IMG/VR virus record: IMGVR_UViG_3300049792_000048 | Coordinates: 64,001 to 128,000 of that record | From: a virus | Lineage: Duplodnaviria > Caudoviricetes | Direction: 5' to 3' (one strand) | DNA: 64,000 nucleotides | In this document: positions 10,964 through 39,584 of the stretch, one piece after another | How the letters are laid out: the number at the start of each line of letters is the position of its first letter | Position numbering within the stretch: position 1 is the first letter of the stretch | The notes under the pieces: generated by a model | What the model saw: only the letters and a program-made list of their open reading frames with translations | Databases searched by the model: none | Told to the model about the DNA's origin: nothing | Program-made: the position numbers and the translations under genes

Positions 10964-11917
10964 ATGCTGAAGGTTTCCATGCCCAGTCTGGCGAGCGTCG
11001 GTCGTCTCATCGCCAAGAATCCCGGTGCAACCGCCGGCGTTGGTGCAGGCATCGGAGCCGCAGTCGGTGCCGGACGTGAAGCGCTGAAGGGCGAAGGTGA
11101 TCGCGACTACCTCGGGGGAGCTCTTCGTGGAGCTGCTGTTGGTGGTGCAGTCGGTGGTGTCGGTGGCGGTATCGCACACGCAGCACGAGATACGATGCTT
11201 CTGCATCCCCGGCTCCAGGGGATGGATGTTGCGAAGAAGACCGTCTCCCGTGCCGGTGAAGGTCTGTCGAACTTCGCGGAGCGTCAGGTTCATGGTCTGA
11301 CGGGGCGTGGTGCCGATGACTCGGCGTACCTCGACCGCATCGGCATCGCCGGCTCTGGCCCCTCTTCACGTCAAGCCCGTCTGCTGAATCTGCGAGCTCA
11401 GGACGACCTCCAGCATCTTCCACAGGGTGCATCGATGAAGGACTTCGTTGCTCGGCAGAAGGGCACCGAAGCCATCCACAACGAGCTCCATCAGCAGGTG
11501 CGCGGTCTGGCTGCGGAGGGTGCCGTCGGTGACCGCTTCCGAGAGCTCGGGATGACGCACGCTCCTGGTGCCGTGAAGGCGATGGTCACGAACCCGCGTG
11601 AAGCCTCGAAGGCGATCTGGAACCAGGTTCGTGCAGGAGGACGCACAAGCGTCGCTCTCGGTCTCGGTGTTCCCGTAGCTGCCACAGCAGCTTCTCTCGC
11701 CAAGGGTGACGAGCGTGCGACCGGTGGTGCCTCGATGCAGGAGAAAGCAGTCCGTGGAGCCGCGAACATCGGCAGCGGTCTCGTCTTCGGTGGGCTCCCC
11801 ATCGCTGCCGGCAATGTTGTCGGTGGCTTGACGGACTTCGCTGCAAGTCGTCTTGGCCGCATCGGTCAGAAGCCGATCGCAAACGCAACAGCGGGATCGG
11901 GTAGGATCGTGCCATGA
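10964..11917 (+). CDS. Gly/Ala-rich membrane-type virion protein (start ATG 10964, MLKVS)
   Basis: GAGG RBS; glycine-zipper hydrophobic segments GAGIGAAVGAG and GAAVGGAVGGVGGG. Confidence 0.6.
   Translation: MLKVSMPSLASVGRLIAKNPGATAGVGAGIGAAVGAGREALKGEGDRDYLGGALRGAAVGGAVGGVGGGIAHAARDTMLLHPRLQGMDVAKKTVSRAGEGLSNFAERQVHGLTGRGADDSAYLDRIGIAGSGPSSRQARLLNLRAQDDLQHLPQGASMKDFVARQKGTEAIHNELHQQVRGLAAEGAVGDRFRELGMTHAPGAVKAMVTNPREASKAIWNQVRAGGRTSVALGLGVPVAATAASLAKGDERATGGASMQEKAVRGAANIGSGLVFGGLPIAAGNVVGGLTDFAASRLGRIGQKPIANATAGSGRIVP
11902..11907 (+). promoter_or_regulatory. -10 element (TAGGAT), leaderless portal transcript
   Basis: TAGGAT 6 nt before ATG 11914; same geometry at 26346 and 62568. Confidence 0.5.
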
Positions 11918-13872
11918 CGTTCTTCGGCGGACCCATGGGGATGGCGGAGAATCGCGGAGCCTCCCTCGGCGGTTCCTTCAACCGCACCAACATCCTCGGG
12001 CGGCAGTACCAGTCGTTTGCAAACCCGTTCTTCGATCAGGCGTCGACATACACGCCGCAGACGGTTCGCAGTCTCTTCGGCTTCTGCCGGTACTACTTCC
12101 TCACGCACGGTGTCATCAACGCCATCTGCACGAAGGCAGCCGAGTACCCGATCACCGACATCATCTTCACGCACAAGGACCGCGGTGTCGTCGATCGCTG
12201 GCGGAACCTGATGCTGGGCGACCTCAACTACCGCATGCACCAGTTTGAGGTGAACCTCGACTACTACGTGTACGGCAATGCGCTGGTCTCGCCCTCGTTC
12301 CCGTTCCGCAAGATGATCATCTGCGGGCCCTGTAACGCCCGCATCGATGCGATCAACTTCCGCCGGCACTGGCGGTACACCGATCACCGCTTCTACTTGA
12401 CGTGTCCGAAGTGCGGTCAGAGCGACTTCGCACAGGCCACTGACGACTATCAGCCGAAGCCCAGCGAGATCAACATGGTCCGCTGGAACCCGGAGAACGT
12501 CTCCATCTTCCACAATGAGACGACTGGGCGGATGGATTACGCCCTCGACCTCTCGGGGAAGTTCCGCAGCCTCGTGGCCATGGGTCGCAAGGACATCATT
12601 GCCACGACCCCGCAGCTCTTTCTCCAAGCCGTCAAGGAGAAGCGCTCGCTCGTGTTCGACAAGCGCGAGGTGTTCCACATGCGCCGTCCGGCCCTGTCCA
12701 GCATGGACCAGGGCTGGGGTGTTCCGCTCCTCATGCCGGTCATGAAGGACGCCTTCTACATGCAGTTGATGAAGAAGTCTCAGGAGACCGTGCTGCTCAC
12801 GCACATGGTCCCGCAGATCTTCTTGTACCCGCAACCAGCAACCAGTGGCGCCGACCCGTTCAGCACGATCAACCTTGCTGATTGGCGTGGGCACATCCAG
12901 CGCGAGCTCGCTCGTCAGCGCGTCGACCCGAGCTACTACGGCATCCTGCCGTTCCCGCTTGGTCACCAGATCATCGGAGAGAACGGCAAGGCTCTTTTGC
13001 TGATGCAGGAGATCCGCATGATTGCGGAGCTCATTGCGATCGGCATGGGGTTCCCGTCTGACCTCGTCTTCGGCCAGGGCACGTACGCCGGTACGTCGGT
13101 CTCGATGCGCATGGTCGAGAACTTCTTCTTGTCGAACGTCCAGAACCACTACCGGCTCATCCACTGGTTCATGGGCCGCACCAGCCACTACTTGAACTGG
13201 AGCGTCCCGACGGCACGCTTCAAGCCGTTCAAGATGGCCGATGACCTTCAGCGTATGGCCCTCGCAGCTTCGCTGAACCAGCAGTCGAAGATCAGCGACA
13301 CGTCGTTGCTCGCGATGATGGACTTCAACGTCGAGGACGAGTCCAGTCTCCAGGTGAAGGAGACGCAGATCCGTGCCGAGGCTCTGAAGAAGCAGCAGCT
13401 CATCCAGGCGGAGATCCAGGGCGAGGCGATGGTTGTGCAGGCGCGCTACCAGGCTCAGGCCCAGGAGATCATGGCGGAAGCTCAGTTGAAGTTGCAGCAG
13501 AAGGGCTTGCTGCCTCTGCCCATGGACCCGAACAACCCAGGCGCAGCAGCCGGTGCAGCCGGCGGTGGGATGGGCACGGCACCCTCGACCCCGTTCACGG
13601 ACGAGATGGGCTCTGGTCTCGCTGCGGCTCCTACAGGCATCCCACTCGACCAGGTCGCAGCCGGGCTGGCGAATCAGATCTCGGCCCAACCTCGCGAGAT
13701 GCAGTCGCAGTCGATCGATCACCTTGCACAGACTCAGCCCGAGCTCGCCGAGCTCGTGAAGCAGCATATCGTCGGTCAGTCTGCGGCCCCCGATACCGGT
13801 GGTGTCGACATGCGGCCGATGCCGAACCAGAAGCCGCCCCGTCGTCTCTCGCTCGGCGGAGCGGGTGGGTAA
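11914..13872 (+). CDS. Portal protein (with zinc-ribbon insertion)
   Basis: INAICTK..YPIT, DYYVYGNA, VFHMRR...GWGVPLL, IAIGMGFP and G.Y....VS pattern typical of HK97-like portals; CGPC..CPKC insert; Gln-rich C-terminus. Confidence 0.78.
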   Translation: MTFFGGPMGMAENRGASLGGSFNRTNILGRQYQSFANPFFDQASTYTPQTVRSLFGFCRYYFLTHGVINAICTKAAEYPITDIIFTHKDRGVVDRWRNLMLGDLNYRMHQFEVNLDYYVYGNALVSPSFPFRKMIICGPCNARIDAINFRRHWRYTDHRFYLTCPKCGQSDFAQATDDYQPKPSEINMVRWNPENVSIFHNETTGRMDYALDLSGKFRSLVAMGRKDIIATTPQLFLQAVKEKRSLVFDKREVFHMRRPALSSMDQGWGVPLLMPVMKDAFYMQLMKKSQETVLLTHMVPQIFLYPQPATSGADPFSTINLADWRGHIQRELARQRVDPSYYGILPFPLGHQIIGENGKALLLMQEIRMIAELIAIGMGFPSDLVFGQGTYAGTSVSMRMVENFFLSNVQNHYRLIHWFMGRTSHYLNWSVPTARFKPFKMADDLQRMALAASLNQQSKISDTSLLAMMDFNVEDESSLQVKETQIRAEALKKQQLIQAEIQGEAMVVQARYQAQAQEIMAEAQLKLQQKGLLPLPMDPNNPGAAAGAAGGGMGTAPSTPFTDEMGSGLAAAPTGIPLDQVAAGLANQISAQPREMQSQSIDHLAQTQPELAELVKQHIVGQSAAPDTGGVDMRPMPNQKPPRRLSLGGAGG

Positions 13873-13897: not shown

Positions 13898-15313
13898 TCA
13901 AAGAGTCCCCTCGTTCTTGTAGAACTCGGGCATCTTCTGGAATGCCTCTTCGATGAGGCTGATGCTGTGGTGGGATCGCAGCACGCTGGTGATCGCTGGT
14001 CGTGGTACCGGATCTGTTGGCTGTGAGGCCCACAACATCAACGCGAGGAAGATGACCGCGGGCTCTCCGAGTTCGATGATGTGGTGTCTCCAGTCCCGGG
14101 CCCGGATGTAGTCCTCGATCAAGGGCTTCATCTGTGCATCCCAGGTCTCACGAGGCGTCTTGCTGGAAGAGTCGAAGGCTTCCACGTTCCCTTCTGGAGT
14201 GTCGGGATGCCATGCCTTCGCACGCCCGGCATGCGGCGACATCGAGTTCATCACCATCGGCAAGTCATTCTTGCCAGTGAGGGTGAAGAACAACGCACCC
14301 AGCTCTTCGCTGTGATGCTCGATGAGCGACCGAACGACCTCGTAGTTCACCGAATAGAGAGTCAGCAATGCAGTCTTCGGGGTGAGGGCACGGAAGTCCT
14401 CGATCGTCAGAGCCCGCCCGATGAGTGTGTAGTAGTCGTCGTTCCTGGCTGACCCCACGATTGCCTTGAGTCCCGAAGCCATCGTTTCGACCGAAGCATC
14501 GTGACGAACGATGCGAAGCCCCTCTCGGACTCCGGTGAGCCTGCGGAAGTAGTCCTCCGCATTACCTGCCGGCAAGTTTCGTATGTACCTCGCTGCACCG
14601 CTCGCTCGGTCGTGCTTCGTTGGGCCATACAACATCTTGTATGAAGCACTGCCCACCATGTCCGTCCACTGTCCGAACTGTGTGTTGAGACGGCAGAGGT
14701 GTCCGTACCACAGCGGAACTTCAACTTGGTGAAGCATCTTCTTCAAGTACTCCTTGGGGAACCAGGCAGCACTTCCCAGCGAGTCGAGCGGGATCGGCCG
14801 CTGCTCGTGATCCAGTAGAAGCTCGATCGGATACGGCTGAAGCCCGAAGCGGGTTGGAGCGTAGGGGTTGCTGGTCACAGCGCTGACGAACTGCTGTGCG
14901 CTGTGGTTCTTGTAGAACTTTCGCAAGAACTCGAACTGTAGGATCTCCTCTGCCTCTAGCTCTTCGATCACGGTGCCATGCTCCATGAGTCCCGTGGCTA
15001 TCTGGATCGGCGTGTGCAGGGAGGTGTAGCCGCGAACGGCTTCGATCTGCATCACCTCCTTCAACGGGATGCCAAGGCGCAGAGTCCTGTCGATCGTGTA
15101 TGTCGGGAAGTTATACGGGGCTGGCCTGTTCGGTACAGCAGGCAACCCCATCTGAGCTGGCAGCTCGCTGAGCTTCTCGCCGTACGCAGCCAGCAGCCAC
15201 CTCCACATCTTCGTGCTGAAGCCGTAGAGGGTGTTGCTGAAGCTTGTGCCCGTGAAGAGTCCTCGACCGTGCTCGTTGAGAAGGGCGTGGGCGAGGGACT
15301 CGTAGACTGTCAT
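13898..15313 (-). CDS. Hypothetical protein, third gene of the AAA/VWA operon
   Basis: TGATG coupling to the VWA gene; long ORF with no motif recognised. Confidence 0.65.
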   Translation of the reverse strand: MTVYESLAHALLNEHGRGLFTGTSFSNTLYGFSTKMWRWLLAAYGEKLSELPAQMGLPAVPNRPAPYNFPTYTIDRTLRLGIPLKEVMQIEAVRGYTSLHTPIQIATGLMEHGTVIEELEAEEILQFEFLRKFYKNHSAQQFVSAVTSNPYAPTRFGLQPYPIELLLDHEQRPIPLDSLGSAAWFPKEYLKKMLHQVEVPLWYGHLCRLNTQFGQWTDMVGSASYKMLYGPTKHDRASGAARYIRNLPAGNAEDYFRRLTGVREGLRIVRHDASVETMASGLKAIVGSARNDDYYTLIGRALTIEDFRALTPKTALLTLYSVNYEVVRSLIEHHSEELGALFFTLTGKNDLPMVMNSMSPHAGRAKAWHPDTPEGNVEAFDSSSKTPRETWDAQMKPLIEDYIRARDWRHHIIELGEPAVIFLALMLWASQPTDPVPRPAITSVLRSHHSISLIEEAFQKMPEFYKNEGTL

Positions 15314-16554
15314 CACCAGGGATGCTCCATGACGTATGTCGTCCCCCATGGAGGCTTCAGGCCTCCGGTTGGGATCACGAACGTCGTCTTCTTGACCGGC
15401 TTATCCGGCAACTTGATGTGGCCATCAGTCAGGATGCAGATCGCGCTCGGCTTTTCCTTTGCTGCGATCTCGAACAACTCGATGGCTGATGTGTACGAGT
15501 GTTCTCCGCTCTTAAACTTGACGTGGTCGAAGATGTGGCGAGGCTGGGTGGTCGTGTACTGCTCGCGAACCACAGCATCGAAGGTGACAACGATTACCTT
15601 CGTGGCTCGATGCGCTGCCGCCTGTACGTTCGTGATGAAGATGCGGATGAGGGCATCGGTGACGCTTGTGCTGACGTCAATGCCGAGGAGGAGGATGCGC
15701 TCCTTCACAACTCGCGTCTGCGGCAAGATGATCGGGTAGTACTTCATCTTGGGTGGCGCATACGTAGCTTCATCCCACCCGAGGTCTGAGCTGAGCCCGC
15801 CCCGAATGAGGGAGCCCCACGGAAGAGTCGGTCGCAAAACCTTCTCCATCCGCTCTCGTACGACGTTGGGGAGCGCCTTGTGCATCGAACTCGTCTCCGA
15901 CAACGCCTTGGCGTGCGCGATATCTTGACGAAAGGCTTCTTGGAAGTCCTTGTTGGCTTGTTGCGGTCCGGTGTCTACGCCGTCCTCTACCTTTCCCGGG
16001 GCGGCGGGGGGTTCTCGCATGTCAGTACCATTGCCGACCTCGTCGTCTTGTCCCTTCTCCGGGAGGTACTTGCTGGTCGATCCAGCCTTGGCCTCTTCCT
16101 CCTTCTTCAAGATGACGTAGATCTCCTCGACCGTCTTTCCATCAGCCCACGACTGGTATTGAATGAAACGTGGAGGAACCGGCCAGCGGATGAGCTGGGA
16201 CCTCGAATCGAGGGTACCGAGCAGTTCTCCGCACTGCCCGTTGACGAAGATGTCGGCCGCGATGTTCCACAGCTTCGGGTCGCGGGTCTCTCGACGCCCA
16301 TGGTGGTTGAAGTAGATGTGGAGCAGCTCATGAAGTAGCCCAAACATCACGATCTCGAAGTCTTCGGCGATCACGAACTTCCTGCCGCAGAAAATCCCGA
16401 CACCATCAGTCTCCATCGTATTGCAGCTGTCGGCGTGCACCTTCACGGAGCTGCCGAACAGCAGATACCCGAAAAAAGGAAACCGGATGACTAGTGACGT
16501 AACCGCCTTCGTCATCCGTTTGTTGTACGTGGGATCTGCGTCGCTGAAGATCAC
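15313..16554 (-). CDS. DUF2201-type metallopeptidase-like + VWA domain protein
   Basis: TMETDG, HELLH (HExxH), WNIAADIFVN, MIDAS DVSTS and LTDG. Confidence 0.85.
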   Translation of the reverse strand: MIFSDADPTYNKRMTKAVTSLVIRFPFFGYLLFGSSVKVHADSCNTMETDGVGIFCGRKFVIAEDFEIVMFGLLHELLHIYFNHHGRRETRDPKLWNIAADIFVNGQCGELLGTLDSRSQLIRWPVPPRFIQYQSWADGKTVEEIYVILKKEEEAKAGSTSKYLPEKGQDDEVGNGTDMREPPAAPGKVEDGVDTGPQQANKDFQEAFRQDIAHAKALSETSSMHKALPNVVRERMEKVLRPTLPWGSLIRGGLSSDLGWDEATYAPPKMKYYPIILPQTRVVKERILLLGIDVSTSVTDALIRIFITNVQAAAHRATKVIVVTFDAVVREQYTTTQPRHIFDHVKFKSGEHSYTSAIELFEIAAKEKPSAICILTDGHIKLPDKPVKKTTFVIPTGGLKPPWGTTYVMEHPW

Positions 16555-17675
16555 GACGAAGAATCCTTGATGATGGTGCCCATGATCTTGCCCGAGGACT
16601 TCGGATAGAAGTTCTTGAACTCGCGCTTCACAGTCTCGCGAAGCTGAAGAAGGAAGGCGACACGAAGTTCGGGAGACAAGCTCTCGATGAAGAGGTCCAG
16701 CCCCTTGTGCTTCGACGACATCTTCTTGTTGAGGCGATCCGTGACCGCGAAGACTCCCGCGAACTCCGCCATTTTCTGCACGACCTCCACGGGTACCTTC
16801 GGGTCGGTGCTCTTGATGGGCTCCTTGAAGGTTCCGTGTTCGAGGATGTGATCGACATCAACCTTCGAGAGGATGCTGTACCAAGCCCAGAAGTCATTTG
16901 CTGCCCCCTGGCCGATTTTGCGCGTCAGGGTACGAAGCCACAGCTTTGGGTCTGTGAACTCCTGCATGTGCAGCGATGCCTCCCGATAGCCACGTGGTGT
17001 CGGGAAGCGGATGACGTTCTCCTCGTGTTTGTGTAGGAGCTCGGGCTTGCTGTTGAGGAACCCGAGGATGACGGGCACGATGCGCGAGGGCTTCCCGTCC
17101 TCCACGTTGTTCGCCCATTCGACGAAGTCGTTGAAGTCAGCGTCCACTTCGATGGCTGTGACACGGGTCTTGAGGGACTCCGACATCGCGTTGGCGTGGA
17201 TGTCGTCGGTGGTGCGGTTGCCGGCACACATCATCAAGGACTTCGGGTGCAGAGCGAAGTCCTTGAACCGGCGATGCACGAAGAGGTGCAGCAGCGAGTT
17301 CGTGACGATTGGAGTGGCTTTGTCGATGTCGTCGAAGAGCAGCATCGTCGGGCGATGGCAGGCGTCGAACGCCGCACGATTCAACGCCCACAGGACTCGG
17401 AAGTCTTTCTTGGAGAGGTCCGAGGTCTCGACCGGAATGACCCATGGGATGCCCGCAGTGTCGGTCGGATCGGAGGCCTCACCCGTGGGGATGGCCTCGA
17501 AGACGAGAGCGTCCTCGATGACCTTCTCGCCCATCTCGATTGCGAGCTCGGCGGCCATCTCGGTTTTCCCGATGCCCACACCTCCGAGCAGACAGGGGAT
17601 GCTGAGGTATCGGTGCTTGTACTGGACGGTCAGCTCCTGAAGAGCTTCCTGTCGAGCTTCTGAGAACTTCGGCAT
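16551..17675 (-). CDS. MoxR-like AAA+ ATPase
   Basis: GGVGIGKT, LLFDDID, AGN and PTPR motifs; paired with the VWA gene. Confidence 0.85.
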   Translation of the reverse strand: MPKFSEARQEALQELTVQYKHRYLSIPCLLGGVGIGKTEMAAELAIEMGEKVIEDALVFEAIPTGEASDPTDTAGIPWVIPVETSDLSKKDFRVLWALNRAAFDACHRPTMLLFDDIDKATPIVTNSLLHLFVHRRFKDFALHPKSLMMCAGNRTTDDIHANAMSESLKTRVTAIEVDADFNDFVEWANNVEDGKPSRIVPVILGFLNSKPELLHKHEENVIRFPTPRGYREASLHMQEFTDPKLWLRTLTRKIGQGAANDFWAWYSILSKVDVDHILEHGTFKEPIKSTDPKVPVEVVQKMAEFAGVFAVTDRLNKKMSSKHKGLDLFIESLSPELRVAFLLQLRETVKREFKNFYPKSSGKIMGTIIKDSSS

Positions 17676-18361: not shown

Positions 18362-18370
18362 GGGCTTCTC

Positions 18371-18384
18371 CATCATGTTGATAG
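18371..18384 (-). promoter_or_regulatory. Putative phage early/middle promoter CTATCAACATGATG
   Basis: Matches the motif family; heads the AAA/VWA operon. Confidence 0.6.
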
Positions 18385-18415: not shown

Positions 18416-18445
18416 TTGACCCACCGTGATGCGTGCGCGTAGACT
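18416..18445 (+). promoter_or_regulatory. sigma70-like leaderless promoter of the RNAP gene
   Basis: TTGACC-N18-TAGACT; GTG start 6 nt downstream. Confidence 0.7.
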
Positions 18446-18451
18446 TCGACG

Positions 18452-21400
18452 GTGCTGAACACCGATCCGAACCGGCAGTACGAGGACCTGAAGCATCGGT
18501 TCCTCGCGGAAATCCAGGCCACGTTCCCGGTCTCGGACCCGAAAACGGGGATCGAAGTCCGGGTGAAGAACTTGGAGGTGTCGGACTCCACGCTCGGGAC
18601 AGACGACATCAAGGGCCAGATGCAGGCCCGGCTCACCGGACGTTCATACACGGCACCTGTCATCGCTGATGTCGAAGTCGTTGATCGTGCCGGCAAGCCG
18701 TTGGTCGGTCGTCGGATGAAGATCGCGGACATCCCGAAGCTGACGCGGCACTACACCTTCATCCACGGCGGGCAAGAGAAGTCGGTCACGAACCAGTGGC
18801 GTCTTCGTCCTGGCGCCTACGTGAAGGCGACCGAGAAGGCTGGCGAGTTCGAGGCACAGTTCCAGCTTGCGAAGGGGCGCCCCTTCGATGTGCAGATGGA
18901 ACCGGGCAGCGGCTACCTCTTCGTGAAGACTGGAGCTCGGAAGATCCCGCTCTACTCAGTCCTCAAGGCCACCGGCGTCACCGATGACGAGATGAAGAAG
19001 GCCTGGGGCGACAAGAACTTCGATGCGAACTTGAAAAAGGCCCGCTACGCACAGGACCTCAACTCGTTCTACACAGCGATGAAGGATGCGAACGTTCCGA
19101 CGGGTACCGACCTTCCGGCAGCGATCGTGAAGTACTTCAGCGAGACGAAAATGGACCCGGCCGTTACGAAGACGACGCTGGGAAAGGGCTTCGATCAGGT
19201 CTCGGGAGAAGCTCTCCTTCGAGCCAGTGGCAAGCTCATCGACGTCAGCGCGGAACGGGTTCGTCCTGATCCCATCGACTCGCTGGAGTTCAAGGAACTG
19301 TGGACTCCGGCCGATCACTTCATCGAACGTCTGCGTGCCTCGAAGAATGACATCCACGGGCGAGTGCTGAAGTCCCTCGGCAAGAAGTCGACACAGGAAG
19401 CGTTGTCGACTGGCTCGACGTCGATCCTCCGTGACATCGTCATGCCCGATTTGATCCAGAAGCCGATCAATCACGTCTTCGGCATCACGGGTCTGACCTC
19501 GACCCCCAAGCAGACGAACCCCGTGTCGATGTTGGCGGACCGTAGCCAGACAACGATCATGGGTCCTGGAGGCATCAAATCGGAGCACCAGGTCACGCTG
19601 TCGAATACAAGCGTCGATCCCTCGCAGCTCGGCTTCGTCGATCCTGTCTTCACTCCCGAAGGTTCTCCGGGAACGACCACCCACCTCACGTCCGGAATCG
19701 TGGTGCGTGACCGCAAGCCGTACACGAAGCTGTACAACTTGAAGACCGGGAAGATCGAGGAGCTCACGCCGGCGGAAGCGGCAAAGGCGATTGTAGTCCT
19801 CCCCGATCAGATCACGTGGCATGGGGGTGTGCCTCGTGCGATCAACGAGAAGGTTCGTGTCTCGAATCAGCATGGCGATATCGAGGAGCGCCCGCTGAAG
19901 GATGCTCACTACGCCCTCATCTCTTCGACACAGGTGTTCTCCACGGAGACCAACCTCGTCCCGTTCATGCAGAACGATGCTGCCGGCCGCACGACCATGT
20001 CGGCGCGACACATGGCACAGGCTCTTTCGCTGACGGGCCGGGAAGCTCCGCTTGTTCAGGTGCAGGCTGCTCCTGGCGCATCGTTTGAGAAGCGGATCGG
20101 TGAGACCTTCCTCTCGCACAAGGCTCCAGCAGCCGGCTTCGTGACGAAGGTATTGGCGGACGAGATCGTGGTGAAGGATCCGGCAGGGCGTGAGCACTCC
20201 GTCCACATCTACGATCACTACCCGCTCAACGAAAAGAAGACGATGTTGCACTCGACGCCCCTCGTGAAGGTGGGTGATCGGGTGCACACCGGGCAGGTCT
20301 TGGCCGATCATTCCTTCACGAAGAACGGGACACTTGCTCTCGGAACAAACGTCCGCGTCGCGTACCTGGCGAACGGTGCGAACCACGAGGATGGCATCGC
20401 CCTCTCCGAGTCGGCGGCGAAGAAGATGGGGACCGAGCATCTCCTGAAGCCGTCATTCTACGTCACCGACGACCATGTTATCGACAAGGGCCGCTTCGTC
20501 GCTCACAAGGGCACGGCCTTCCAACCCACGCAGTACAACCACATCGGCGATGATGGTGTCGTGAAGGAGGGGGCCACGGTCCATCCTGGTGACCCGCTCG
20601 TTCTGGCTCTTCGTGAAGAGAAGAACCCCGACACGATCGACGCGAAGATGCTCGACCGGCTCACCAAGAAGGGCCGCCTCGACTACACGAACGCGGCTCT
20701 GACGTGGGACCACGAACATACCGGAGAGGTTGTTCGTGTGGTCCGCTCCGGCAAGAACATCACTGTTCACGTCAAGACGAAGGAGCCGATGATCGTCGGG
20801 TCCAAGGTCTCGACGCGTCACAGTGCGAAGGGCATCGTCACGCAGATCCTGCCCGACAACGAGATGCCGTACTACATGAAGAATGGCAAGCACGAGCACG
20901 TCGAGATGCTGATCAACCCGGTCTCCGTGCCGGGACGCATGAATCCGGGTCAGATCTTGGAGACTGCCGCAGGCAAGATCGCCGAGAAGACTGGGCAGCC
21001 CTACATCGTCAAGAACTTCGACGGACAGACCGACTACCTGAAAAAGATCCAGAACGAGCTGAAGCATCACGGCCTCAAGGAGACCGAGCTCCTCGTCGAC
21101 CCCAAGACCGATCGCAAGCTCGGCGAGGTGACAGTCGGTCCGCACTACGTGTTCCAGCTCGAACATCAGATCGACAAGAAGACGCACGTCCGACACGGCG
21201 GCGCCTACATCAAGTCGACTGGGATGCCGCACATCCAGTACGACACCAATCTCGTTCCTCGGGGTGGTGGTGAGAGCGGAGCTCAGAGCTTGGGCTCTCT
21301 CGGCATCTACGGCGCTCTTGCTGCTGGTCTCCGTCAGAACCTCGGTGAGATGCAGACCCTCAAGTCCGATCGTCCGCAGGCCGAAGCTCTGTGGGCTGCT

Positions 21401-24400
21401 CTCGCGAACGGCCGGATGATCCCGCCTCCGCAGGTCCCCTACGTCTACAGCAAGTTCGGAGCTCTGCTTCAGGCCACGGGCTTGAACCTGGAGAAGAAGG
21501 GCAGCCTGCTCAGCCTCGTTCCGCAGACCGATGCAGAGACGCTGAAGTGGGCCGGAGGCAAGAGCGGCAAGGTCACCGAGCCATCCCTCACCGTGGCAGC
21601 CAAGAACATGAAGCCGAAGAGCGGAGGCATCTTCGACCCGCACATCTTCGGCCCGGACAAGCAGCGTTGGGGCTACATCGAGCTCGCAGCGCCGATGCCG
21701 AACCCGATCTTCGCTGACTCGATTTCCTCGCTGCTGGGCATCCAGAAGCAGGACATCCAGAAGATTATCTCTGGTGAGATGAAGTTGAACGGCAAGATCG
21801 GGGGCGAGGCGATCCGCGAGGGTCTCGCCAAGATCAACGTCGATCAGAAGCTGAAGCACTACAAGGCGATGATCGACGATCCGAAGGTGAAGAGCAGCGA
21901 GCTCAACAACGCCATCTTCGCGTACAAGTCGCTGCGTGCGCTGAAGGAGCACGGCAAGACGCCTTCCGAGGCGTACACGATGAAGTTGCTCCCGGTGCTT
22001 CCTCCGATCTACCGTCCCTTCCAGGAGAGTGCGGAGGGCACCGACCGCATCGATCCGCTGAACCAGCTTTACCGCCGACTCGGTATGGTGAACTCGTCGT
22101 TGGAGGCCTCGAAGAAGGAAGGCATCCCCGACCGCCGTCTCCTTCAGGCGCAGGGTGATCTCTACCAGGAGATGCAGAACCTTTTTGGCACGACCCCGAA
22201 GGGGAAGAAGGCGCTCGACATCGACTTCCAGGGCAACCCTGTGCGAGGTCGTTTCCTGCCCGGCATCTTGCACACCATCGCGGGTGACTCGCCGAAGGAT
22301 GGCTTCTTCCAGGACAAGGTCATCGGCAAGAAGCAGGACTACACAGCACGAGCCACGATCGTCGCTGACCCAGGTCTCGGTGCCGATGAGATTGGCGTGC
22401 CGAAGAAGATCGCCTTCGAGCTCTTCCGGCCTGTGGTGGGGCATCGCCTCGTGCAGATGGGCTACAACCCGATCCAGGCGCAGCAGGAGATCTCGAAGCG
22501 CTCCGCGGTGGCCGAGGCTGCTCTCCAGCGAGAGATCGAAGAGCGTCCGGTCTTGATGAAGCGTGACCCCGTGCTCCACCAGTACGGCATCATCGGTCAG
22601 AAGGTGAAGCTGACGGATTCGCGAGCCATCAAGGTGAGCCCGCTCGTTCTCCCTCCGATCGGTGGAGACATCGATGGCGATACGGTGGCGCTGTTGCTCC
22701 CCATCCAACACGCCGCAGTCCAGGAAGCGTACAAGCTCCTCCCGTCGAACCGGTCCATCTCGGCAAGTACGGGAGAGGTCCTGTTCACTCCGACGAACGA
22801 GGCGATGCTGGCCCTCTACCGCATGTCCCTCAAGAAGCGGGAGACGAACCAGACGTTCGCATCGTCGAAGGAGGCAGAGGCCGCCTTCGTCAACAACAAG
22901 GTGAACCTCGACGACGTCATCACAGTCGGTGGGCACCGCACCACGCTCGGTCGTGTGCGTATCTCCCACGTCGTACCCGAGCAGTACAAGACGAAGGTCC
23001 TCACTGACATCGACACCCCCATCTCGAAGAAGTTCGTCACGGACATGCTGCGTCAGACGGCGCAGCACTCGCCGGCGACCTTCGAGCCGTTCACGCGCAA
23101 CCTCACCCAGCTCGGCTTCAAGATGGCGTTCGAGAGCGGGCACACTGTGCGGCTGTCGGACTTGGAGCCGATGCGGGTCGAGCGCGCAAAGATCATCGCA
23201 GCTGCGAAGGGACGTGCCGAAGGCAAGCCCGACGCAGAGCGGACGCAGATCTGGATCGACGCCACCAAGAAGCTGCACGAGACGTACGACGAGCACTTCA
23301 AGAAGCACCCCACCAACATCTCGGACATGCGGGCCTCGGGCATCAAGGCCAAGAAGGAGCAGTTCCAGGGCTTGGTGATTGCTCCGATGCTTGTGGAGAA
23401 CCACCTCGGGCATGCCTCGAAGGTGCCGATCACTCGCTCGTTCTCAGAAGGCATCGACGTCGGCGGCTACTTCCTCCAGGCAGCAGGAGCTCGGAAGGGC
23501 ACCATTCAGAAGGTCGACGCTGTCCGTGATCCCGGCGTGCTGACGAAGGAGCTCATCCAGTCCAACATCGACTCGCCCATCACGGCGATGGACTGCGGAA
23601 CCCACTCGGGCATCAGCCTCGGCGTCAACGACCGCGACCTCGTCGACCGCTACCTCGCTTCTCCCGTCACAGCCGGTGGCAAGACGATCCCTGCTGGCAC
23701 CGTCATCACCCCCGGGCTTCAGCAGACCTTCTCGAAGTCGGGTGTCACGAACCTGTTCGTGCGGTCTCCGCTGAAGTGCCGCATGCCGCACGGTATTTGT
23801 TCGACCTGCATGGGCAAGCACCCCTCCGGAGTCAACTACGACTTGGGTGACAACGTCGGCATCATGGCGGCTCAGGCCATCGGTGAGCGTGCTGCACAGC
23901 TCATGCTGAAGCAGACGCACAACCAGGGCATCGTCCCGACGCAGCGTGGTGCCGTCGACGAGTTCAGCACAGTCGAGCGGGTGTTCGGGGTGGCGAAGCG
24001 CTCGCCAGTTGATGCGATCATCGCTCCGCGTGCAGGCCTCATCACCCGTGTCGAGGCTCAGCCGCAGGGTGGCCACAAGATTCGCTTCGCGGAGAGCAAG
24101 GTCGATCTCTACTCTCGGCAGCCGCTTCTTCCGCACGTGAAGGCCGGCTACAGGTTCCAGCGCGGTGAGCAGCTCTCAGAGGGCGACCCGAACCTCAACA
24201 TGCTGCTCAAGACCCGTGGTCTCGAAGCGACACAGGACCACATGGTCGATCGCATCGGGAAGATCTACGAGAAGGAGGACGTCCTTCGTCGTCACGTCGA
24301 GCTTACGGTCCGCAATGCAACCAGCACGGTTGAGGTGTCGGACCCGGGCGACCACCCGACCATCCTCCGTGGGGACCATATGCAGTTCCCCATGATCGAG

Positions 24401-24649
24401 GAAATCAATCGAACCGTGCTCAAGGGCCGGAAGCCGATCGAAGTGCGCCCGGTACTGAAGGCCACGGAGACCACGACCGCGCTGAAGCAGCACGACTGGA
24501 TGGCACGACTTCAGTCGAATCGCCTCCAGGAGCACATCATGACGGCGGCGGCTCTCAACGAGAAGTCCGACGTCCACGGCTTGCACCCAATCCCGGGCTT
24601 GGCGATGGGCAGCGAGTTCGGTAAAGGTCGTGGTGTAGCCAAGTACTGA
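18452..24649 (+). CDS. rpoBC: DNA-directed RNA polymerase, fused beta + beta' subunits
   Basis: beta motifs GPGG, TPEG, LVPFMQND, NHED, GSKVSTRHSAKG, PGRMNPGQ, EHQIDKK.H.R, TLKSD. beta' motifs IFGP, LPVLPP..RP, GKKQDY, RDPVLH, GGDIDGD, GARKG, RSPLKC..CSTC, AAQAIGE. Confidence 0.95.
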   Translation: MLNTDPNRQYEDLKHRFLAEIQATFPVSDPKTGIEVRVKNLEVSDSTLGTDDIKGQMQARLTGRSYTAPVIADVEVVDRAGKPLVGRRMKIADIPKLTRHYTFIHGGQEKSVTNQWRLRPGAYVKATEKAGEFEAQFQLAKGRPFDVQMEPGSGYLFVKTGARKIPLYSVLKATGVTDDEMKKAWGDKNFDANLKKARYAQDLNSFYTAMKDANVPTGTDLPAAIVKYFSETKMDPAVTKTTLGKGFDQVSGEALLRASGKLIDVSAERVRPDPIDSLEFKELWTPADHFIERLRASKNDIHGRVLKSLGKKSTQEALSTGSTSILRDIVMPDLIQKPINHVFGITGLTSTPKQTNPVSMLADRSQTTIMGPGGIKSEHQVTLSNTSVDPSQLGFVDPVFTPEGSPGTTTHLTSGIVVRDRKPYTKLYNLKTGKIEELTPAEAAKAIVVLPDQITWHGGVPRAINEKVRVSNQHGDIEERPLKDAHYALISSTQVFSTETNLVPFMQNDAAGRTTMSARHMAQALSLTGREAPLVQVQAAPGASFEKRIGETFLSHKAPAAGFVTKVLADEIVVKDPAGREHSVHIYDHYPLNEKKTMLHSTPLVKVGDRVHTGQVLADHSFTKNGTLALGTNVRVAYLANGANHEDGIALSESAAKKMGTEHLLKPSFYVTDDHVIDKGRFVAHKGTAFQPTQYNHIGDDGVVKEGATVHPGDPLVLALREEKNPDTIDAKMLDRLTKKGRLDYTNAALTWDHEHTGEVVRVVRSGKNITVHVKTKEPMIVGSKVSTRHSAKGIVTQILPDNEMPYYMKNGKHEHVEMLINPVSVPGRMNPGQILETAAGKIAEKTGQPYIVKNFDGQTDYLKKIQNELKHHGLKETELLVDPKTDRKLGEVTVGPHYVFQLEHQIDKKTHVRHGGAYIKSTGMPHIQYDTNLVPRGGGESGAQSLGSLGIYGALAAGLRQNLGEMQTLKSDRPQAEALWAALANGRMIPPPQVPYVYSKFGALLQATGLNLEKKGSLLSLVPQTDAETLKWAGGKSGKVTEPSLTVAAKNMKPKSGGIFDPHIFGPDKQRWGYIELAAPMPNPIFADSISSLLGIQKQDIQKIISGEMKLNGKIGGEAIREGLAKINVDQKLKHYKAMIDDPKVKSSELNNAIFAYKSLRALKEHGKTPSEAYTMKLLPVLPPIYRPFQESAEGTDRIDPLNQLYRRLGMVNSSLEASKKEGIPDRRLLQAQGDLYQEMQNLFGTTPKGKKALDIDFQGNPVRGRFLPGILHTIAGDSPKDGFFQDKVIGKKQDYTARATIVADPGLGADEIGVPKKIAFELFRPVVGHRLVQMGYNPIQAQQEISKRSAVAEAALQREIEERPVLMKRDPVLHQYGIIGQKVKLTDSRAIKVSPLVLPPIGGDIDGDTVALLLPIQHAAVQEAYKLLPSNRSISASTGEVLFTPTNEAMLALYRMSLKKRETNQTFASSKEAEAAFVNNKVNLDDVITVGGHRTTLGRVRISHVVPEQYKTKVLTDIDTPISKKFVTDMLRQTAQHSPATFEPFTRNLTQLGFKMAFESGHTVRLSDLEPMRVERAKIIAAAKGRAEGKPDAERTQIWIDATKKLHETYDEHFKKHPTNISDMRASGIKAKKEQFQGLVIAPMLVENHLGHASKVPITRSFSEGIDVGGYFLQAAGARKGTIQKVDAVRDPGVLTKELIQSNIDSPITAMDCGTHSGISLGVNDRDLVDRYLASPVTAGGKTIPAGTVITPGLQQTFSKSGVTNLFVRSPLKCRMPHGICSTCMGKHPSGVNYDLGDNVGIMAAQAIGERAAQLMLKQTHNQGIVPTQRGAVDEFSTVERVFGVAKRSPVDAIIAPRAGLITRVEAQPQGGHKIRFAESKVDLYSRQPLLPHVKAGYRFQRGEQLSEGDPNLNMLLKTRGLEATQDHMVDRIGKIYEKEDVLRRHVELTVRNATSTVEVSDPGDHPTILRGDHMQFPMIEEINRTVLKGRKPIEVRPVLKATETTTALKQHDWMARLQSNRLQEHIMTAAALNEKSDVHGLHPIPGLAMGSEFGKGRGVAKY

Positions 24650-25215: not shown

Positions 25216-26312
25216 GCGACGGGCACTACAGCGCTAGCGGTCCCTCGACGGACGCCTTCTTCCCCGCCGTCATCGAGGAAGCGATGGTGACGAACGTCAA
25301 CAAGGCGAACTTCACTGTCAGCGTCGTCACACGTCACACCCAGAAGCCGTTTCAAGACCTTCAGTGCGCTCTGCCATACTTCCACAACGAGAACGGTGAG
25401 GGCATCTACTTCCTCCCCGAGGTTGGGGCTCGCTGCCAGATCTTCCGAGGCAACGACACTACGCCGCCGTTCATCCTCGGCTTCATCGCAATCCCGTCGG
25501 TCATCGAGAGCGACGACGGTACCCCTACCCGAAGCACGTCCGCGGGTGGGAGCACGACCGATGTCTCGTTCCGTGGGCGGCGGCTCGACATCCAGCCCGG
25601 AGACATCTTCATGACGACGCGAGATGAGAACTTCATCTTGCTTCGTCGTGGTGGTGTTCTTCAGCTCGGCTCTACGGAGCTTGCGCAGCGCATCTACATC
25701 CCGATCAACAACTACGTCCGCGACTTCGCGGAGAACTACACGATGGACACCTTTGGCGGGAACATCCGCTGGACGGTGGAACGCCAAGAGAACGATCCGG
25801 GAGGTGATGCTCCCGCGTCGTATGTCTTCCACATGAACGAACATGCGCAGGACGAGAAGGCCTCGTTCCGCATCCGACACTTCCCGCTCCGAGGTCCCGC
25901 AGGAGGCGATGCCCAGGTCTGGGAGATCATGGTTGCATCGCAGGGCATCAATACGGAGACGGGCGAGGTCACGAGCGCCACGTACAGCATGCTCTTGAAA
26001 ATGGACGGCACGAAGACCGAGATGATTGGGGCGAACTACTCGCTTCGTGTGAAGGGCAACTACGACGTTCAAGTAGATGGTGATCTCACCATGAAGGCCA
26101 ACGGCAAGGCACGTGTCGAAGGCGGCTCCGAGGCTCGGGTGAAGGCCACTCAGGTCATCCTCGACGGTGATGTCGTCGCTGGCGGAGCTGGGGCCACTGA
26201 ACCGGGCGTGCTGGGCACCCAGCTCATGACGTACCTGACCACTCTCGGTAGTGCCGCAGGCGTGGGACCGCCCCCTCCCACGATCTTGGCGCAGAAGTTC
26301 AAGCTTCTCTGA
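25212..26312 (+). CDS. Baseplate central spike (gpV/gp5-like)
   Basis: OB-fold LPEVGARC...PFILGF; C-terminal beta-helix repeats (VKGNYDVQVDGDLTMKANG). Confidence 0.75.
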   Translation: MSDGHYSASGPSTDAFFPAVIEEAMVTNVNKANFTVSVVTRHTQKPFQDLQCALPYFHNENGEGIYFLPEVGARCQIFRGNDTTPPFILGFIAIPSVIESDDGTPTRSTSAGGSTTDVSFRGRRLDIQPGDIFMTTRDENFILLRRGGVLQLGSTELAQRIYIPINNYVRDFAENYTMDTFGGNIRWTVERQENDPGGDAPASYVFHMNEHAQDEKASFRIRHFPLRGPAGGDAQVWEIMVASQGINTETGEVTSATYSMLLKMDGTKTEMIGANYSLRVKGNYDVQVDGDLTMKANGKARVEGGSEARVKATQVILDGDVVAGGAGATEPGVLGTQLMTYLTTLGSAAGVGPPPPTILAQKFKLL

Positions 26313-26345
26313 AGGCAGCTCTCCTCCTGAACACGTTTTCGATGT

Positions 26346-26351
26346 TAGGAT
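26346..26351 (+). promoter_or_regulatory. -10 element (TAGGAT), leaderless
   Basis: TAGGAT 7 nt before ATG 26359. Confidence 0.5.
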
Positions 26352-26358
26352 GCACACC

Positions 26359-28437
26359 ATGGACCTCTTCACGAACGTCGCCCCCATCTTCCAGGACAAG
26401 GTCGCTGCCGTCCCGCTCGACGAGGATGCGGCGAAGTGGGGGCCGCAGATCCTCCAGGAGCTCTTCCGCCAGGTCCCCGAGGCCTCGGAGTACAACCCGC
26501 AGGTCGTGATGCTCCGGCAGGACGATGAGCAGGGCTTCGCTCTCGGAGTCATCGTCATCTCGGGACAGACGGACTCCGCCCTCTCGATGGCCGGCAACGA
26601 GCAGCCGACGTCGAAGAAGGCGTTGATTCCCGTGATCATCAAGAATACCGAGCTGTGTCCGCTCGATATCGTGATGACGCAGGACAAGCGCGTGTACCCG
26701 CTCAACGGCATCCGTCTCCGCGAAGCGTTGTTCCGCCCGAACACCTTCGACATGATGACGGACGACTCGGGCGACCAGAGTCTCTACTCGATGTTCTATC
26801 CGCCGGGACGCTCCTCGAACTCCCCCGGCTCGGGCTTCAGTGGCGGCGCAGGTGACAGCGTCAACTACGTCATGGGTCCGGGCATGAAGTCAGCCTCGAA
26901 GGTCGCCGCGGCCGTCGAGGAGTCGCTGCTGCATCGCATCGCGCCGACGCTGTCACAGGCCGACCTCGACATGCTCGGTGAGAAGATCTCGTCGCTGGGT
27001 CTGGAATCGCAGCTCAAGGAGAACCCGGCCTTCCTCGCGGTCGTGTCGCACCTGGCCAACTTCGATGGCCGTCTCCTCACGGAGGGGGATGCCGATCTTC
27101 TCATCGACAAGGCCGCCAGCTACGCCCCGATCGAGGTCGCTCAGTTCGGCTGGGACGAGGCACGCAGCACGTACTGGATGAAGACGGCGTCGCGCTCGAT
27201 CTTCGGCCTCAGCCGCGACGACATCGATCGTGGGCAGATGCTGAAGTTCGCGGGCCCCGAGCTCACGAAGAAGGTCGACACCGAAGGCACCGTCACCGTC
27301 TCCGAGCCGGCGAAGGACACTGCTCCTCTCGACACGACGAACGACCGCTGGGAGGTCATCGAGAAGCCGGGCGTCTATCGCGTCCGCGACATCAACGGGC
27401 AGGAGATGATGGGTTGGGTTCTCCCCTCGCTCGTCGACTTCGATGGCACCCGCGTTCCGATGGCCGTGTTCACGAACGGTGCGACGGCTGCGGTCCAGGG
27501 CTCGATCATCGGCGCGAAGATCTCGGACGCCTCGATGGGCCTTCCCGAGGACAAGCCGACGGGTTCGGGTCTCTTCTACGTGGTGACCCCCAGTGGCATC
27601 GAGGCGACCGTGCCGTTCAAGATCGAGGGCCGTGAGGCTTCGATGGATGGTGGCGACCTCGTCCACGTCACCACGCTCACCGGGCAGCCTCACACGGTCC
27701 GTCTCGTCCCGGGGCTTCAGCACATGATGCCCGGGGAGCAGGAGTGCTCGCTGCCTGCCTCGGCACGCTTCCTCGCACTGAACAAGGAGACGGCGGTGCC
27801 CCTCGTCGATGACCTCGAAGCGGCCAAGACCTCGGCTCTCAGCCAGCCGTTCATCGCCCTTCGTCACGGTGGCGACGTCATCGACCTCACCTTTCACAAG
27901 CTGCCGGGGTTCGAGGCTACGGTCCCGAAGCTCGCCTCGATCGAGGACACCATCTTCGTGCTCTGTGCTGCTGGCATGACTCCGCTGAAGGCGCACGAGA
28001 TCATCAAGCATGCCTCGCACACGATGCGCACCGAGCACGTGATCGGCGTGCACGACGTCCGCACGGTCGAGACGTTCATGCAGGACATCGAGAAGACGGC
28101 GTCCGAGAAGGTCGCGCAGGTCCGTGCTCTCCGGCAGGACCTCATCAAGGAAGCTTCGGTGCTGCCCGACATCCAGACCGTCGACAGCGTCCTCTCGCTC
28201 AACTTCCTGAATCCCGAGAATCTGCGGGTGTACGTCGGCAAGCTGCCGTACCTCGATCGAGCGCTCAACACCGTCTGCGAGCTCACGCTGTTCTCTCGCC
28301 TCGGTATGACCGAGGTTCCGGAGACGGCTGCGGCTCGTGCGGCTCGTGCGCTCGACGAGGTCATCCAGGGCCTCAAGGGCCTCGCGATGCGCACCGCAGA
28401 TGCCGACGGGACGCCGTCGGCTGCTGCCGCATCGTGA
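26359..28437 (+). CDS. Large KxA-rich virion (inner head/core?) protein
   Basis: KVA, KSA-KVA, KAA, KTA, KHA, KTA-KVA and KEA motifs; start inferred from the leaderless promoter. Confidence 0.6.
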   Translation: MDLFTNVAPIFQDKVAAVPLDEDAAKWGPQILQELFRQVPEASEYNPQVVMLRQDDEQGFALGVIVISGQTDSALSMAGNEQPTSKKALIPVIIKNTELCPLDIVMTQDKRVYPLNGIRLREALFRPNTFDMMTDDSGDQSLYSMFYPPGRSSNSPGSGFSGGAGDSVNYVMGPGMKSASKVAAAVEESLLHRIAPTLSQADLDMLGEKISSLGLESQLKENPAFLAVVSHLANFDGRLLTEGDADLLIDKAASYAPIEVAQFGWDEARSTYWMKTASRSIFGLSRDDIDRGQMLKFAGPELTKKVDTEGTVTVSEPAKDTAPLDTTNDRWEVIEKPGVYRVRDINGQEMMGWVLPSLVDFDGTRVPMAVFTNGATAAVQGSIIGAKISDASMGLPEDKPTGSGLFYVVTPSGIEATVPFKIEGREASMDGGDLVHVTTLTGQPHTVRLVPGLQHMMPGEQECSLPASARFLALNKETAVPLVDDLEAAKTSALSQPFIALRHGGDVIDLTFHKLPGFEATVPKLASIEDTIFVLCAAGMTPLKAHEIIKHASHTMRTEHVIGVHDVRTVETFMQDIEKTASEKVAQVRALRQDLIKEASVLPDIQTVDSVLSLNFLNPENLRVYVGKLPYLDRALNTVCELTLFSRLGMTEVPETAAARAARALDEVIQGLKGLAMRTADADGTPSAAAAS

Positions 28438-32329: not shown

Positions 32330-34751
<2,422 letters not shown>

Positions 34752-39337: not shown

Positions 39338-39574
39338 GTGATGAGCACCCACCCCAACTTGATGTTCGACAGCTTCCTGAAGACGGCGTCCACCGCCTCT
39401 GTCAGGCCAGCTTCGTCGTACGCCTCGTCGGGGATGGGTGACGCATCACAGAAGCTCAAGGTGACGAATGCGCCCAGCAAGTCGCAGTGGTCGTCACCGA
39501 ACCCGTCTCAGGCAACCCCCAACCAAAGCCCGTTCGCGGCTCAGAAGAACGCACCGCCTCCGCCGGTGCAGTGA
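39338..39574 (+). CDS. Small protein with FDSFLKTA leader
   Basis: Fills the gap in the head operon; Ser/Pro-rich after the KTA. Confidence 0.5.
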   Translation: MMSTHPNLMFDSFLKTASTASVRPASSYASSGMGDASQKLKVTNAPSKSQWSSPNPSQATPNQSPFAAQKNAPPPPVQ

Positions 39575-39584
39575 GGAAGACGTC

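Follow-up and report, generated by a model that had tools for sequence, protein, structure and literature searches.

Can a bacteriophage transcribe its genome with a bacterial-type RNA polymerase (RNAP) contained in a single polypeptide? The question is raised by a 64,000-nucleotide (nt) stretch of DNA from a virus of the Caudoviricetes (Duplodnaviria; IMG/VR record IMGVR_UViG_3300049792_000048, positions 64,001 to 128,000; the whole stretch is hereafter referred to as the window), which contains a gene encoding the β and β′ subunits joined end to end. Bacterial-type RNAPs are thought to need an α dimer, and usually ω, for assembly; their NADFDGD catalytic loop is almost invariant, and the β′ zinc ribbon serves in the control of initiation and termination. 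A sequence-only reading of the window had described a compact chain of 2065 amino acids (aa) with a non-canonical catalytic motif, a deleted zinc-binding domain and no gene for α, ω or σ nearby. We consider it likely that this gene encodes an active, σ-dependent, single-chain phage RNAP, a judgement that excludes the separate matter of whether the enzyme is packaged into virions.

Architecture and active centre of the fused polymerase

The open reading frame (ORF) contains 2065 codons without an internal stop, and its GTG start codon is backed by the N-terminus common to its homologues. Residues were mapped by alignment to Salmonella RpoB and RpoC, which have the same numbering as the Escherichia coli subunits (Ec). 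The features located in this way were as follows.

18452–24649, plus strand: fused β-β′ RNAP gene, GTG start, stop codon included, 2065 aa
18452–21496, plus strand: β (RpoB-like) moiety, residues 1–1015, by alignment, without inserts SI1 and SI2
19481–19561, plus strand: equivalent of rifampicin cluster I, residues 344–370, with Q513S, D516K, H526D, R529Q and S531T
20798–20806, plus strand: β GSK motif (canonical GDK), residues 783–785, with D1064S fixed in the subclade defined below
21497–21570 (beginning at nt ~21494), plus strand: β/β′ junction, residues ~1016–1040, by alignment; ratio of nonsynonymous to synonymous substitution rates (dN/dS) 0.12
21644–21685, plus strand: site of the deleted β′ zinc ribbon (IFGPDKQRWGYIEL, residues 1065–1078), a deletion common to the whole phage family
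22055–22192, plus strand: β′ clamp helices, residues 1202–1247, predicted docking site for the phage σ
22661–22681, plus strand: catalytic loop GGDIDGD, residues 1404–1410, Asp triad invariant in the family
23897–23920, plus strand: trigger loop QLMLKQTH, residues 1816–1823, His invariant, no SI3

Both halves of the protein were recognized in sequence searches. The β half matched Pfam Rpb2_3 and RNA_pol_Rpb2_6 (E 3e-49) over residues 353–921, and the β′ half matched Rpb1_1/2/3/5 over residues 1173–1830. The PDB sequence matches were bacterial β for the first half (E ~1e-63) and bacterial β′ for the second (Thermus, E ~1e-84), and the best PHROG matches (E 1e-65 to 1e-91) were two unannotated families, 24349 and 25354, corresponding to the two halves. 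The protein could be aligned to bacterial β and β′ over nearly its whole length. The β homology ends at residue ~1015 (Ec 1339) and the β′ homology starts at residue ~1020–1039 (Ec ~17–36) and extends to residue 2065, such that the β C-terminus is joined near-directly to the β′ N-terminus, with almost no linker. The inserts SI1, SI2 and SI3 of the E. coli lineage are missing. The ORF, the Pfam and PDB matches and the alignment bear out the earlier description of one chain carrying all the core motifs, and the junction, which had been placed near 21480–21540, maps to nt ~21494–21570. These data support the identification of the gene product, on the basis of its sequence, as a phage-encoded single-chain β-β′ RNAP.

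In the catalytic loop, D1406, D1408 and D1410 correspond to Ec D460, D462 and D464, the metal-binding DxDxD signature of the β′ double-psi barrel, whereas the full NADFDGD consensus is absent from the window protein. The replacement of NADFDGD by GGDIDGD was found exactly where it had been reported, at residues 1404–1410, and the alignment likewise agreed with the reported change of GDK to GSK (β GDKMAGRHGNKG being replaced by GSKVSTRHSAKG) and with the reported trigger loop QLMLKQTH. In this loop (GERAAQLMLKQTHNQG), H1823 preserves H936, with R933 replaced by K and M932 by L. The F-loop and bridge helix aligned at residues 1642–1706; the β half keeps the equivalents of K1065, K1073, R678, R1106, H1237, E813 and D814, and the β′ half that of R425. 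With the Asp triad, the β lysines, the NTP-binding arginines, the bridge helix and the trigger-loop His all kept, the enzyme appears to be catalytically competent.

The β′ N-terminal zinc-binding domain is indeed deleted: the zinc ribbon (Ec C70–C88, with ligands C70, C72, C85 and C88) is replaced by IFGPDKQRWGYIEL and was absent from all 24 aligned members of the phage family (24/24), and the second zinc site (C814, C888, C895, C898) is retained. Six positions of the rifampicin pocket are changed in the alignment, five of them in cluster I, as listed above, together with I572T. We take these positions to be classical sites of rpoB resistance and, as the pocket is substituted there, the fused RNAP is probably insensitive to rifampicin.

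The family of fused polymerases and its phylogeny

A word-indexed search for homologues identified more than 110 clusters of fused proteins of 2039–2148 aa, with 37–96% identity and on contigs of up to 198 kb, together with longer homologues containing intein domains. An exhaustive HMMER search with the β′ half (E≤1e-30) returned 1887 representatives (50% identity), the best 150 of which, extending to ~30% identity, were all fused proteins or fragments thereof. Clusters of fused homologues, defined at 50% identity, number more than 150, on phage contigs of 160–198 kb. Comparison with an 87%-identical relative (L088) gave a dN/dS of 0.115 for the whole gene (β, 0.10; β′, 0.13; junction, 0.12; catalytic barrel, 0.055), which denotes strong purifying selection on every one of these parts. 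The sequence-only reading had named an assembly artefact among the findings that would overturn it; the many fused homologues and the overall dN/dS show that the fusion is not one. The window protein has the traits of the fused family, which are a single chain of ~2040–2150 aa, no zinc ribbon, a neighbourhood of portal, MoxR–VWA and terminase genes, and a co-occurring σ of 260 aa. No description of a full-length fused β-β′ phage RNAP was found in the literature searched, which is not proof of absence, and reviews of jumbo-phage RNAPs make no mention of the fused family (PMC7598289, PMC7824862). We conclude that these proteins form a very large, diverse family of fully fused phage RNAPs, essentially undescribed in the literature searched.

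Other arrangements were observed among the relatives, in which β (995 aa) and the N-terminal part of β′ (492 aa) form separate ORFs or are fused into proteins of 1447–1842 aa (L018, from a Mailhella metagenome-assembled genome (MAG), L017, L019 and L024). This family has been split and fused repeatedly. Relatives also carry intein-sized insertions (340–530 aa) at about nine hot spots coinciding with the best-conserved motifs (residues ~405, ~635, ~785, ~823, ~970, ~1070, ~1408, ~1787 and ~1822–1838 of the window protein, P0001), including TPEG, the ED motif, GDK, the catalytic loop, the second zinc site and the trigger loop. The catalytic-loop hot spot (~1408) is occupied in about 50 representative proteins, and a single relative may have up to four or five insertions (e.g. 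P0278, with 4739 aa, P0195 and P0163); the window copy has none. Intein and homing-endonuclease Pfam domains are present in some of the insertion-bearing relatives. We take such insertions at core motifs as a sign that the RNAP gene matters to these phages.

The phylogeny of the β′ moiety was estimated for 46 sequences with IQ-TREE under the LG+C20 PMSF (posterior mean site frequency) model, by a quick search with SH-aLRT (Shimodaira–Hasegawa-like approximate likelihood ratio test) support, marked below with an asterisk. All 26 fully fused proteins lay on one side of a branch (96*) and formed a sister clade to the proteins of the phages Arash and D69 (99*). The 12 canonical bacterial sequences were all placed to one side of another branch (96*), and the RNAPs of Cobetia phage Carin-5 and Rhizobium phage Y65 fell outside the fused clade. 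Nesting within an ordinary bacterial clade, which the sequence-only reading had proposed to check by phylogeny, was not observed: the window protein lay within none of the bacterial clades sampled by these 12 sequences. It belongs instead to a subclade of eight sequences (100*), which has a long stem branch (0.88) and is nested within a set of groups still bearing NADFDGD.

The catalytic loop varies within the family. Among 121 proteins, GGDIDGD was found in 53, GGDVDGD in 21, NGDIDGD in 13 and NADFDGD in 11, with others in the remainder; the consensus loop of the fused family is NADFDGD. The substitutions N458G, A459G and F461I are fixed in the eight-member subclade, save for one member keeping N. 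We compared 151 alignment columns that do not vary among the eight bacteria aligned and are conserved in 12 or more of the 14 other fused phage enzymes. Ten of these columns are replaced in all eight members of the subclade (F812H, D1064S and K1234Q in β; F437Q, P439V, G444S, A459G, F461I, M466V and M484L in β′). Seven of the ten lie between β′ 437 and 484, around the catalytic loop; β D1064S adjoins K1065 and β K1234Q is close to H1237. The replacement residues are themselves conserved within the subclade. Because the subclade is nested among NADFDGD groups, the family consensus is NADFDGD and the replacements are shared, the sequences indicate that GGDIDGD is not primitive but derived, as part of a selected retuning of the shell of the active centre in one subclade. 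The description of the catalytic motif as non-canonical holds for the loop, which does differ, but the full Asp triad is kept and the divergence is derived in one subclade of a family with a canonical consensus.

Several bacterial genomes (Fervidobacterium, Jettenia, Nitrospirae and Desulfobacteraceae) contain an extra single ORF of 1480 to >2300 aa with β-like and β′-like barrels, NADFDGD included, with a canonical rpoC present at another locus as well (Fervidobacterium thailandense NZ_CP140110.1, 192002–200287 (L039); also L052, L029, L031, L040, L041 and L043). These ORFs are on long branches of their own near the bacteria, and may represent second RNAPs of fused type, paralogous to the canonical one and possibly carried by mobile elements.

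The cultured relatives in the phage database are all distant. The closest system, that of Arash (gp206 and gp216, with σ gp10) and the Vibrio phages D69, D148 and D181 (~29–31% identity, genomes of 180–187 kb), has the same fused β-β′ junction, no zinc ribbon, a portal–RNAP linkage and a homologous σ. In Arash and D69, however, β is fused to only the N-terminal ~480 residues of β′ (~1525 aa), β′ being split at about residue 1493 and its C-terminal part (~607 aa) being produced as a protein of its own from a gene located several genes further downstream, whereas the window RNAP is one chain; the loop reads AADYDGD rather than GGDIDGD. The statement that phage RNAPs known from metagenomes are biochemically uncharacterized should be qualified, in that the sister-group phage Arash has been subjected to virion proteomics, in which RNAP and σ were detected (PMC10585845).

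Deep-branching metagenomic phage RNAPs, also mentioned in the sequence-only reading, do exist as the mReC set of Weinheimer and Aylward (2020), but constitute a different, unfused set. The screen was based on separate hits to COG0085 and COG0086 of at least 800 aa and on the motif NADxDGD; in about 70 of the ~105 phage rows of its table, β (900–1563 aa) and β′ (899–1391 aa) are always separate and no protein reaches 2000 aa; and the contigs are described as having a T4-type major capsid protein (MCP; PF07068) and a large terminase of PF03237 (PMC7481178). Both sets are phage-encoded cellular-type β/β′ proteins branching apart from bacteria. By comparison with mReC, the window phage has a large terminase of PF05876, an MCP candidate without a PF07068 hit, a fused gene and GGDIDGD. 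Since the filter, as described there, required separate subunits and NADxDGD, it would have missed the fused family, which may have been overlooked partly for this reason, as this is the one systematic survey.

Rhizobium phages (Kleczkowskaviridae) and Carin-5 have unfused subunits, with an adjacent σ gene in Carin-5. The natural rpoB–rpoC fusions of Helicobacter and Wolbachia, and the engineered tethered β-β′ of E. coli, have the same topology and show that fusion is compatible with activity; these are housekeeping RNAPs that keep α2, ω, the zinc ribbon, NADFDGD and the lineage inserts. The RNAPs of phiKZ/AR9-type jumbo phages, one set of which is packaged in the virion (PMC7598289, PMC7824862), are likewise phage-encoded two-barrel enzymes without α or ω, but consist of four to five very divergent polypeptides and have no σ factor; PHROG matches of the fused protein to their families were weak (E 1e-7 to 1e-26). 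Both catalytic barrels are also found in one polypeptide in the crAss-like gp66 and in YonO. The crAss-like enzymes are virion proteins. Both gp66 and YonO are reported to have no detectable full-length homology to β/β′ (PMC7481178).

Sigma factor, promoters and genome setting

The record is a complete genome of 195,774 bp with direct terminal repeats. Neither α (PF01000, PF01193) nor ω (PF01192) was matched at E≤10 anywhere along its length, although the controls gave matches in 14 of 14 genomes; host α or ω may still be used. No σ gene is present in the 64-kb window, consistent with the earlier claim that the window lacks α, ω and σ genes. Extending the search to the remainder of the genome, as had been suggested, again revealed no α, but a σ70-family gene was found at genome positions 32818–33606 (262 aa), about 30 kb before the window. 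Arash gp10, annotated as σ and detected in virions, matches this ORF with 28% identity (E 7e-11); a profile of its homologues matches regions 2–4 of SigA/RpoD in PDB (E 6e-10), and 10 of 19 homologues reach Sigma70_r3. A PHROG scan of the genome's own σ yielded nothing, its identity coming from the family profile and the homologues only. The σ homologues are apparently on the same contigs as the fused RNAP homologues, the contigs having been matched by size. A PF04545 (σ region 4) match at genome position 25699 proved to be the helix-turn-helix of an HNH endonuclease, not a σ.

In a model of the complex of this σ with β′ residues 1040–1480, the interface score ipSAE was 0.73, as against 0.00 for the best of three controls; in the calibration, this mark was attained for 58 of 80 solved pairs and for 2 of 110 mismatched ones. 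At least 48% of contacts were common to the runs, and the predicted local distance difference test score (pLDDT) of the partner was at least 66. The modelled interface, between clamp helices 1196–1240 and σ residues 68–85, is the canonical region-2 contact. The two proteins are a textbook pair, and passing the mark denotes resemblance to solved holoenzymes rather than proven binding. On this model, partnership of the σ with the fused RNAP is the most likely arrangement.

Two classes of putative promoter were recognized, and both are represented immediately upstream of the RNAP gene:

18416–18445, plus strand: class 1 σ70-like promoter, TTGACC-18 nt-TAGACT, ending 6 nt before the GTG of the RNAP gene
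18370–18384, minus strand: class 2 near-match, CTATCAA-ca-tgatgg, directed away from the RNAP gene and facing the MoxR/VWA operon

Of 222 genes, 14 had the class 1 hexamer, TAG[AG][AC]T, 6–7 nt ahead of their first start codon (background, 0.7%), and the hexamer was threefold depleted elsewhere in the genome; these starts have no Shine-Dalgarno sequence. The genes concerned are on the plus strand and include the portal gene and other, partly virion, genes (in the window, 7543, 11914, 18452 and 62580, plus strand). TTGACC was found 18 nt upstream from the hexamer at three class 1 sites. The pattern TTGAC-N17-19-TAnnnT was not enriched genome-wide (5 observed vs. 3.7 expected), only its position relative to start codons being non-random. 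The location of the hexamer 6–7 nt before the start codon implies that class 1 promoters give leaderless mRNAs. The class 2 motif, CTATMAR-NN-RRDTRR (typically CCTATCAGnaaGATGAAG), was found at 20 mostly intergenic sites genome-wide, against 0.3 expected, with all 11 minus-strand sites (11/11) to the left of 133 kb and all nine plus-strand sites (9/9) to the right of 134 kb. It is present upstream of the DNA ligase gene and other non-structural operons, at sites in the window such as 7501, 32305, 34310 and 62555 (all on the minus strand) and, as a near-match, upstream of the σ operon. We regard it as a candidate for a second temporal class of promoter.

The genes surrounding the RNAP gene in the window (G+C content about 61%; no tRNA in its 64 kb) include the following:

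11914–13872, plus strand: portal, 652 aa, homologue of Arash gp204 and D69 0259 (E 1e-64)
15313–17675, minus strand: VWA/DUF2201 metallopeptidase-like and MoxR-type AAA ATPase genes, found beside the RNAP gene down to 37% identity
24649–25215, plus strand: HNH endonuclease, 188 aa, between the RNAP stop and the next conserved gene
29912–31756, plus strand: large terminase, GpA_ATPase type (PF05876)

The gene order portal, minus-strand [VWA/DUF2201][MoxR AAA], RNAP, four to six conserved genes and terminase is unchanged in relatives with identities of 56% and 37%, and in Arash and D69 one small gene separates portal and RNAP. The genome has only one RNAP gene set. The HNH gene has stop/start overlaps on both sides, a low codon score and no counterpart in the 96%- and 87%-identical relatives; from this exact placement, poor codon score and absence, it is a recent mobile insertion, probably of a free-standing homing endonuclease. 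PHROG and Pfam annotation was blank for most neighbours and promoter-associated genes.

Some further observations concern the neighbouring proteins. The MoxR/VWA pair could be a chaperone or maturation system. A 623-aa protein encoded from window position 62580 to 64000 (plus strand), and on to genome position 128451, combines a class 1 promoter with an InPase (PF18823) pyrophosphatase domain, of a type characteristic of the polyvalent proteins that phages inject; a pyrophosphatase, gp23, is also present in Arash virions, and the InPase protein may be accessory to an injected RNAP. K-x-A tripeptides are enriched 2.6- to 6.4-fold in several head-module proteins (ORFs 34832–35635, with 10 of 11 Lys, 7543–8847, 26251–28437, 36591–38396 and 39468–40487), a pattern that fits a cleavage code for a prohead protease. 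They are not enriched in the RNAP (11 observed vs. 13.1 expected, a ratio of 0.84), a result neutral with respect to processing or packaging.

Proposed deployment of the enzyme and its significance

In the mechanism that we propose, a complete bacterial-type catalytic core, owned by the phage, would be contained in one polypeptide and, as suggested by a genome without α and ω genes, the covalent β-β′ link would replace the assembly platform of α dimer and ω. Promoter recognition would be supplied by the divergent 262-aa σ70-family protein of the phage, bound to the β′ clamp helices. The enzyme and σ would be carried in the virion and injected, and would initiate transcription, possibly at the CTATMAG...GATGA motif; the σ70-like promoters of virion genes, including that of the RNAP gene, may instead be read by host RNAP. 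We lean slightly towards the packaging step, because of the portal–terminase position of the gene, its virion-type TAGrmT promoter and the prominence of RNAP and σ in Arash particles. In mass spectrometry of Arash virions, gp206 had the highest count, with 3516 spectra, and 1210 spectra were obtained for gp216 and 467 for the σ gp10 (PMC10585845).

Several points weigh against this mechanism. The σ of the genome passes no Pfam threshold alone. The tree is based on β′ only, by a quick search with no bootstrap, on 12 bacterial sequences from few phyla and without archaea or eukaryotes. In bacterial RNAP, N458 (E. coli numbering) touches the ribose of the incoming NTP, and with its loss the chemistry could be altered and the reaction no longer be ordinary transcription. 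Arash shares only about 30% identity and has differently split subunits, and its preparation yielded a "virion" list of 116 out of 272 proteins, with ribonucleotide reductases and ligases among them (PMC10585845), such that contamination by abundant cytoplasmic proteins is plausible. A good σ70-like promoter also fits early expression by the host RNAP.

These last points lead to an alternative for which we see an appreciable chance, well short of even: the same enzyme would remain unpackaged, host RNAP would transcribe its gene from the leaderless promoter, and RNAP and σ would then take over the class 2 promoters, a logic like that of T7 or of the non-virion RNAPs of jumbo phages. The TTGACC-18-TAGACT promoter directly upstream of the RNAP gene would serve this purpose, the genome has a single RNAP gene set, the 20 class 2 sites (0.3 expected) precede ligase and other non-structural operons, and the Arash virion list is suspiciously broad. 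Set against this are the location of the RNAP gene within the head-morphogenesis block, with the promoter type of the portal and other virion genes, and the fact that the Arash RNAP has the top spectral count among particle proteins, with σ detected too.

The substitutions around the catalytic loop raise a different issue. A more elaborate version of the packaged, σ-dependent enzyme, as a two-gene, rifampicin-insensitive, α/ω-free machine, injected with a retuned pocket of altered sugar or initiating-nucleotide selectivity and reading a private promoter, CTATMAG-N3-GATGA, is unlikely in its entirety. It is also unlikely that the GGDIDGD subclade is functionally shifted to such an altered selectivity and is not a plain transcriptase; an enzyme so shifted might, for instance, discriminate less well between rNTPs and dNTPs, make primers or produce non-canonical 5′ ends. 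The replacement of 10 of 151 conserved positions in all eight members, seven of them around the catalytic loop, the long stem (0.88) and the conservation of the new residues are what such a shift would leave; but all the residues known for chemistry are kept, sister subclades with NADFDGD have the same genome organization and σ, and the loop is generally relaxed in phage enzymes (AADYDGD in Arash and D69, NLDYDGD in Carin-5). A search for base-modification genes of the ThyA-like (thymidylate-synthase-like) or TGT/DpdA kind, which might call for an unusual polymerase, found none, and the idea of a retuned site matched to hypermodified DNA gained nothing from it. Finally, the probability that the feature is unreal, whether through chimeric assembly, contamination with bacterial rpoBC or decay of the gene, is negligible: no support was found for it, beyond the binning of some family members in bacterial MAGs, where they could be misread as cellular, and it is countered by a complete 195.8-kb phage genome with terminal repeats, the same architecture on hundreds of independent contigs, the dN/dS of 0.115, the placement of the gene between portal and terminase, and the size of the MAG contigs with fused homologues (72–190 kb), typical of phage genomes of this family.

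The likely active, σ-dependent phage RNAP described here belongs to a family that does without α, ω and the zinc ribbon under strong purifying selection, apparently with one small σ. It opens up the questions of what constitutes a minimal bacterial-type RNAP, what the real need for α, ω and the zinc ribbon is, and how far the catalytic loop can drift. Such an enzyme would offer a compact two-gene orthogonal transcription system, and would be a probable case of host-independent, drug-insensitive phage transcription.

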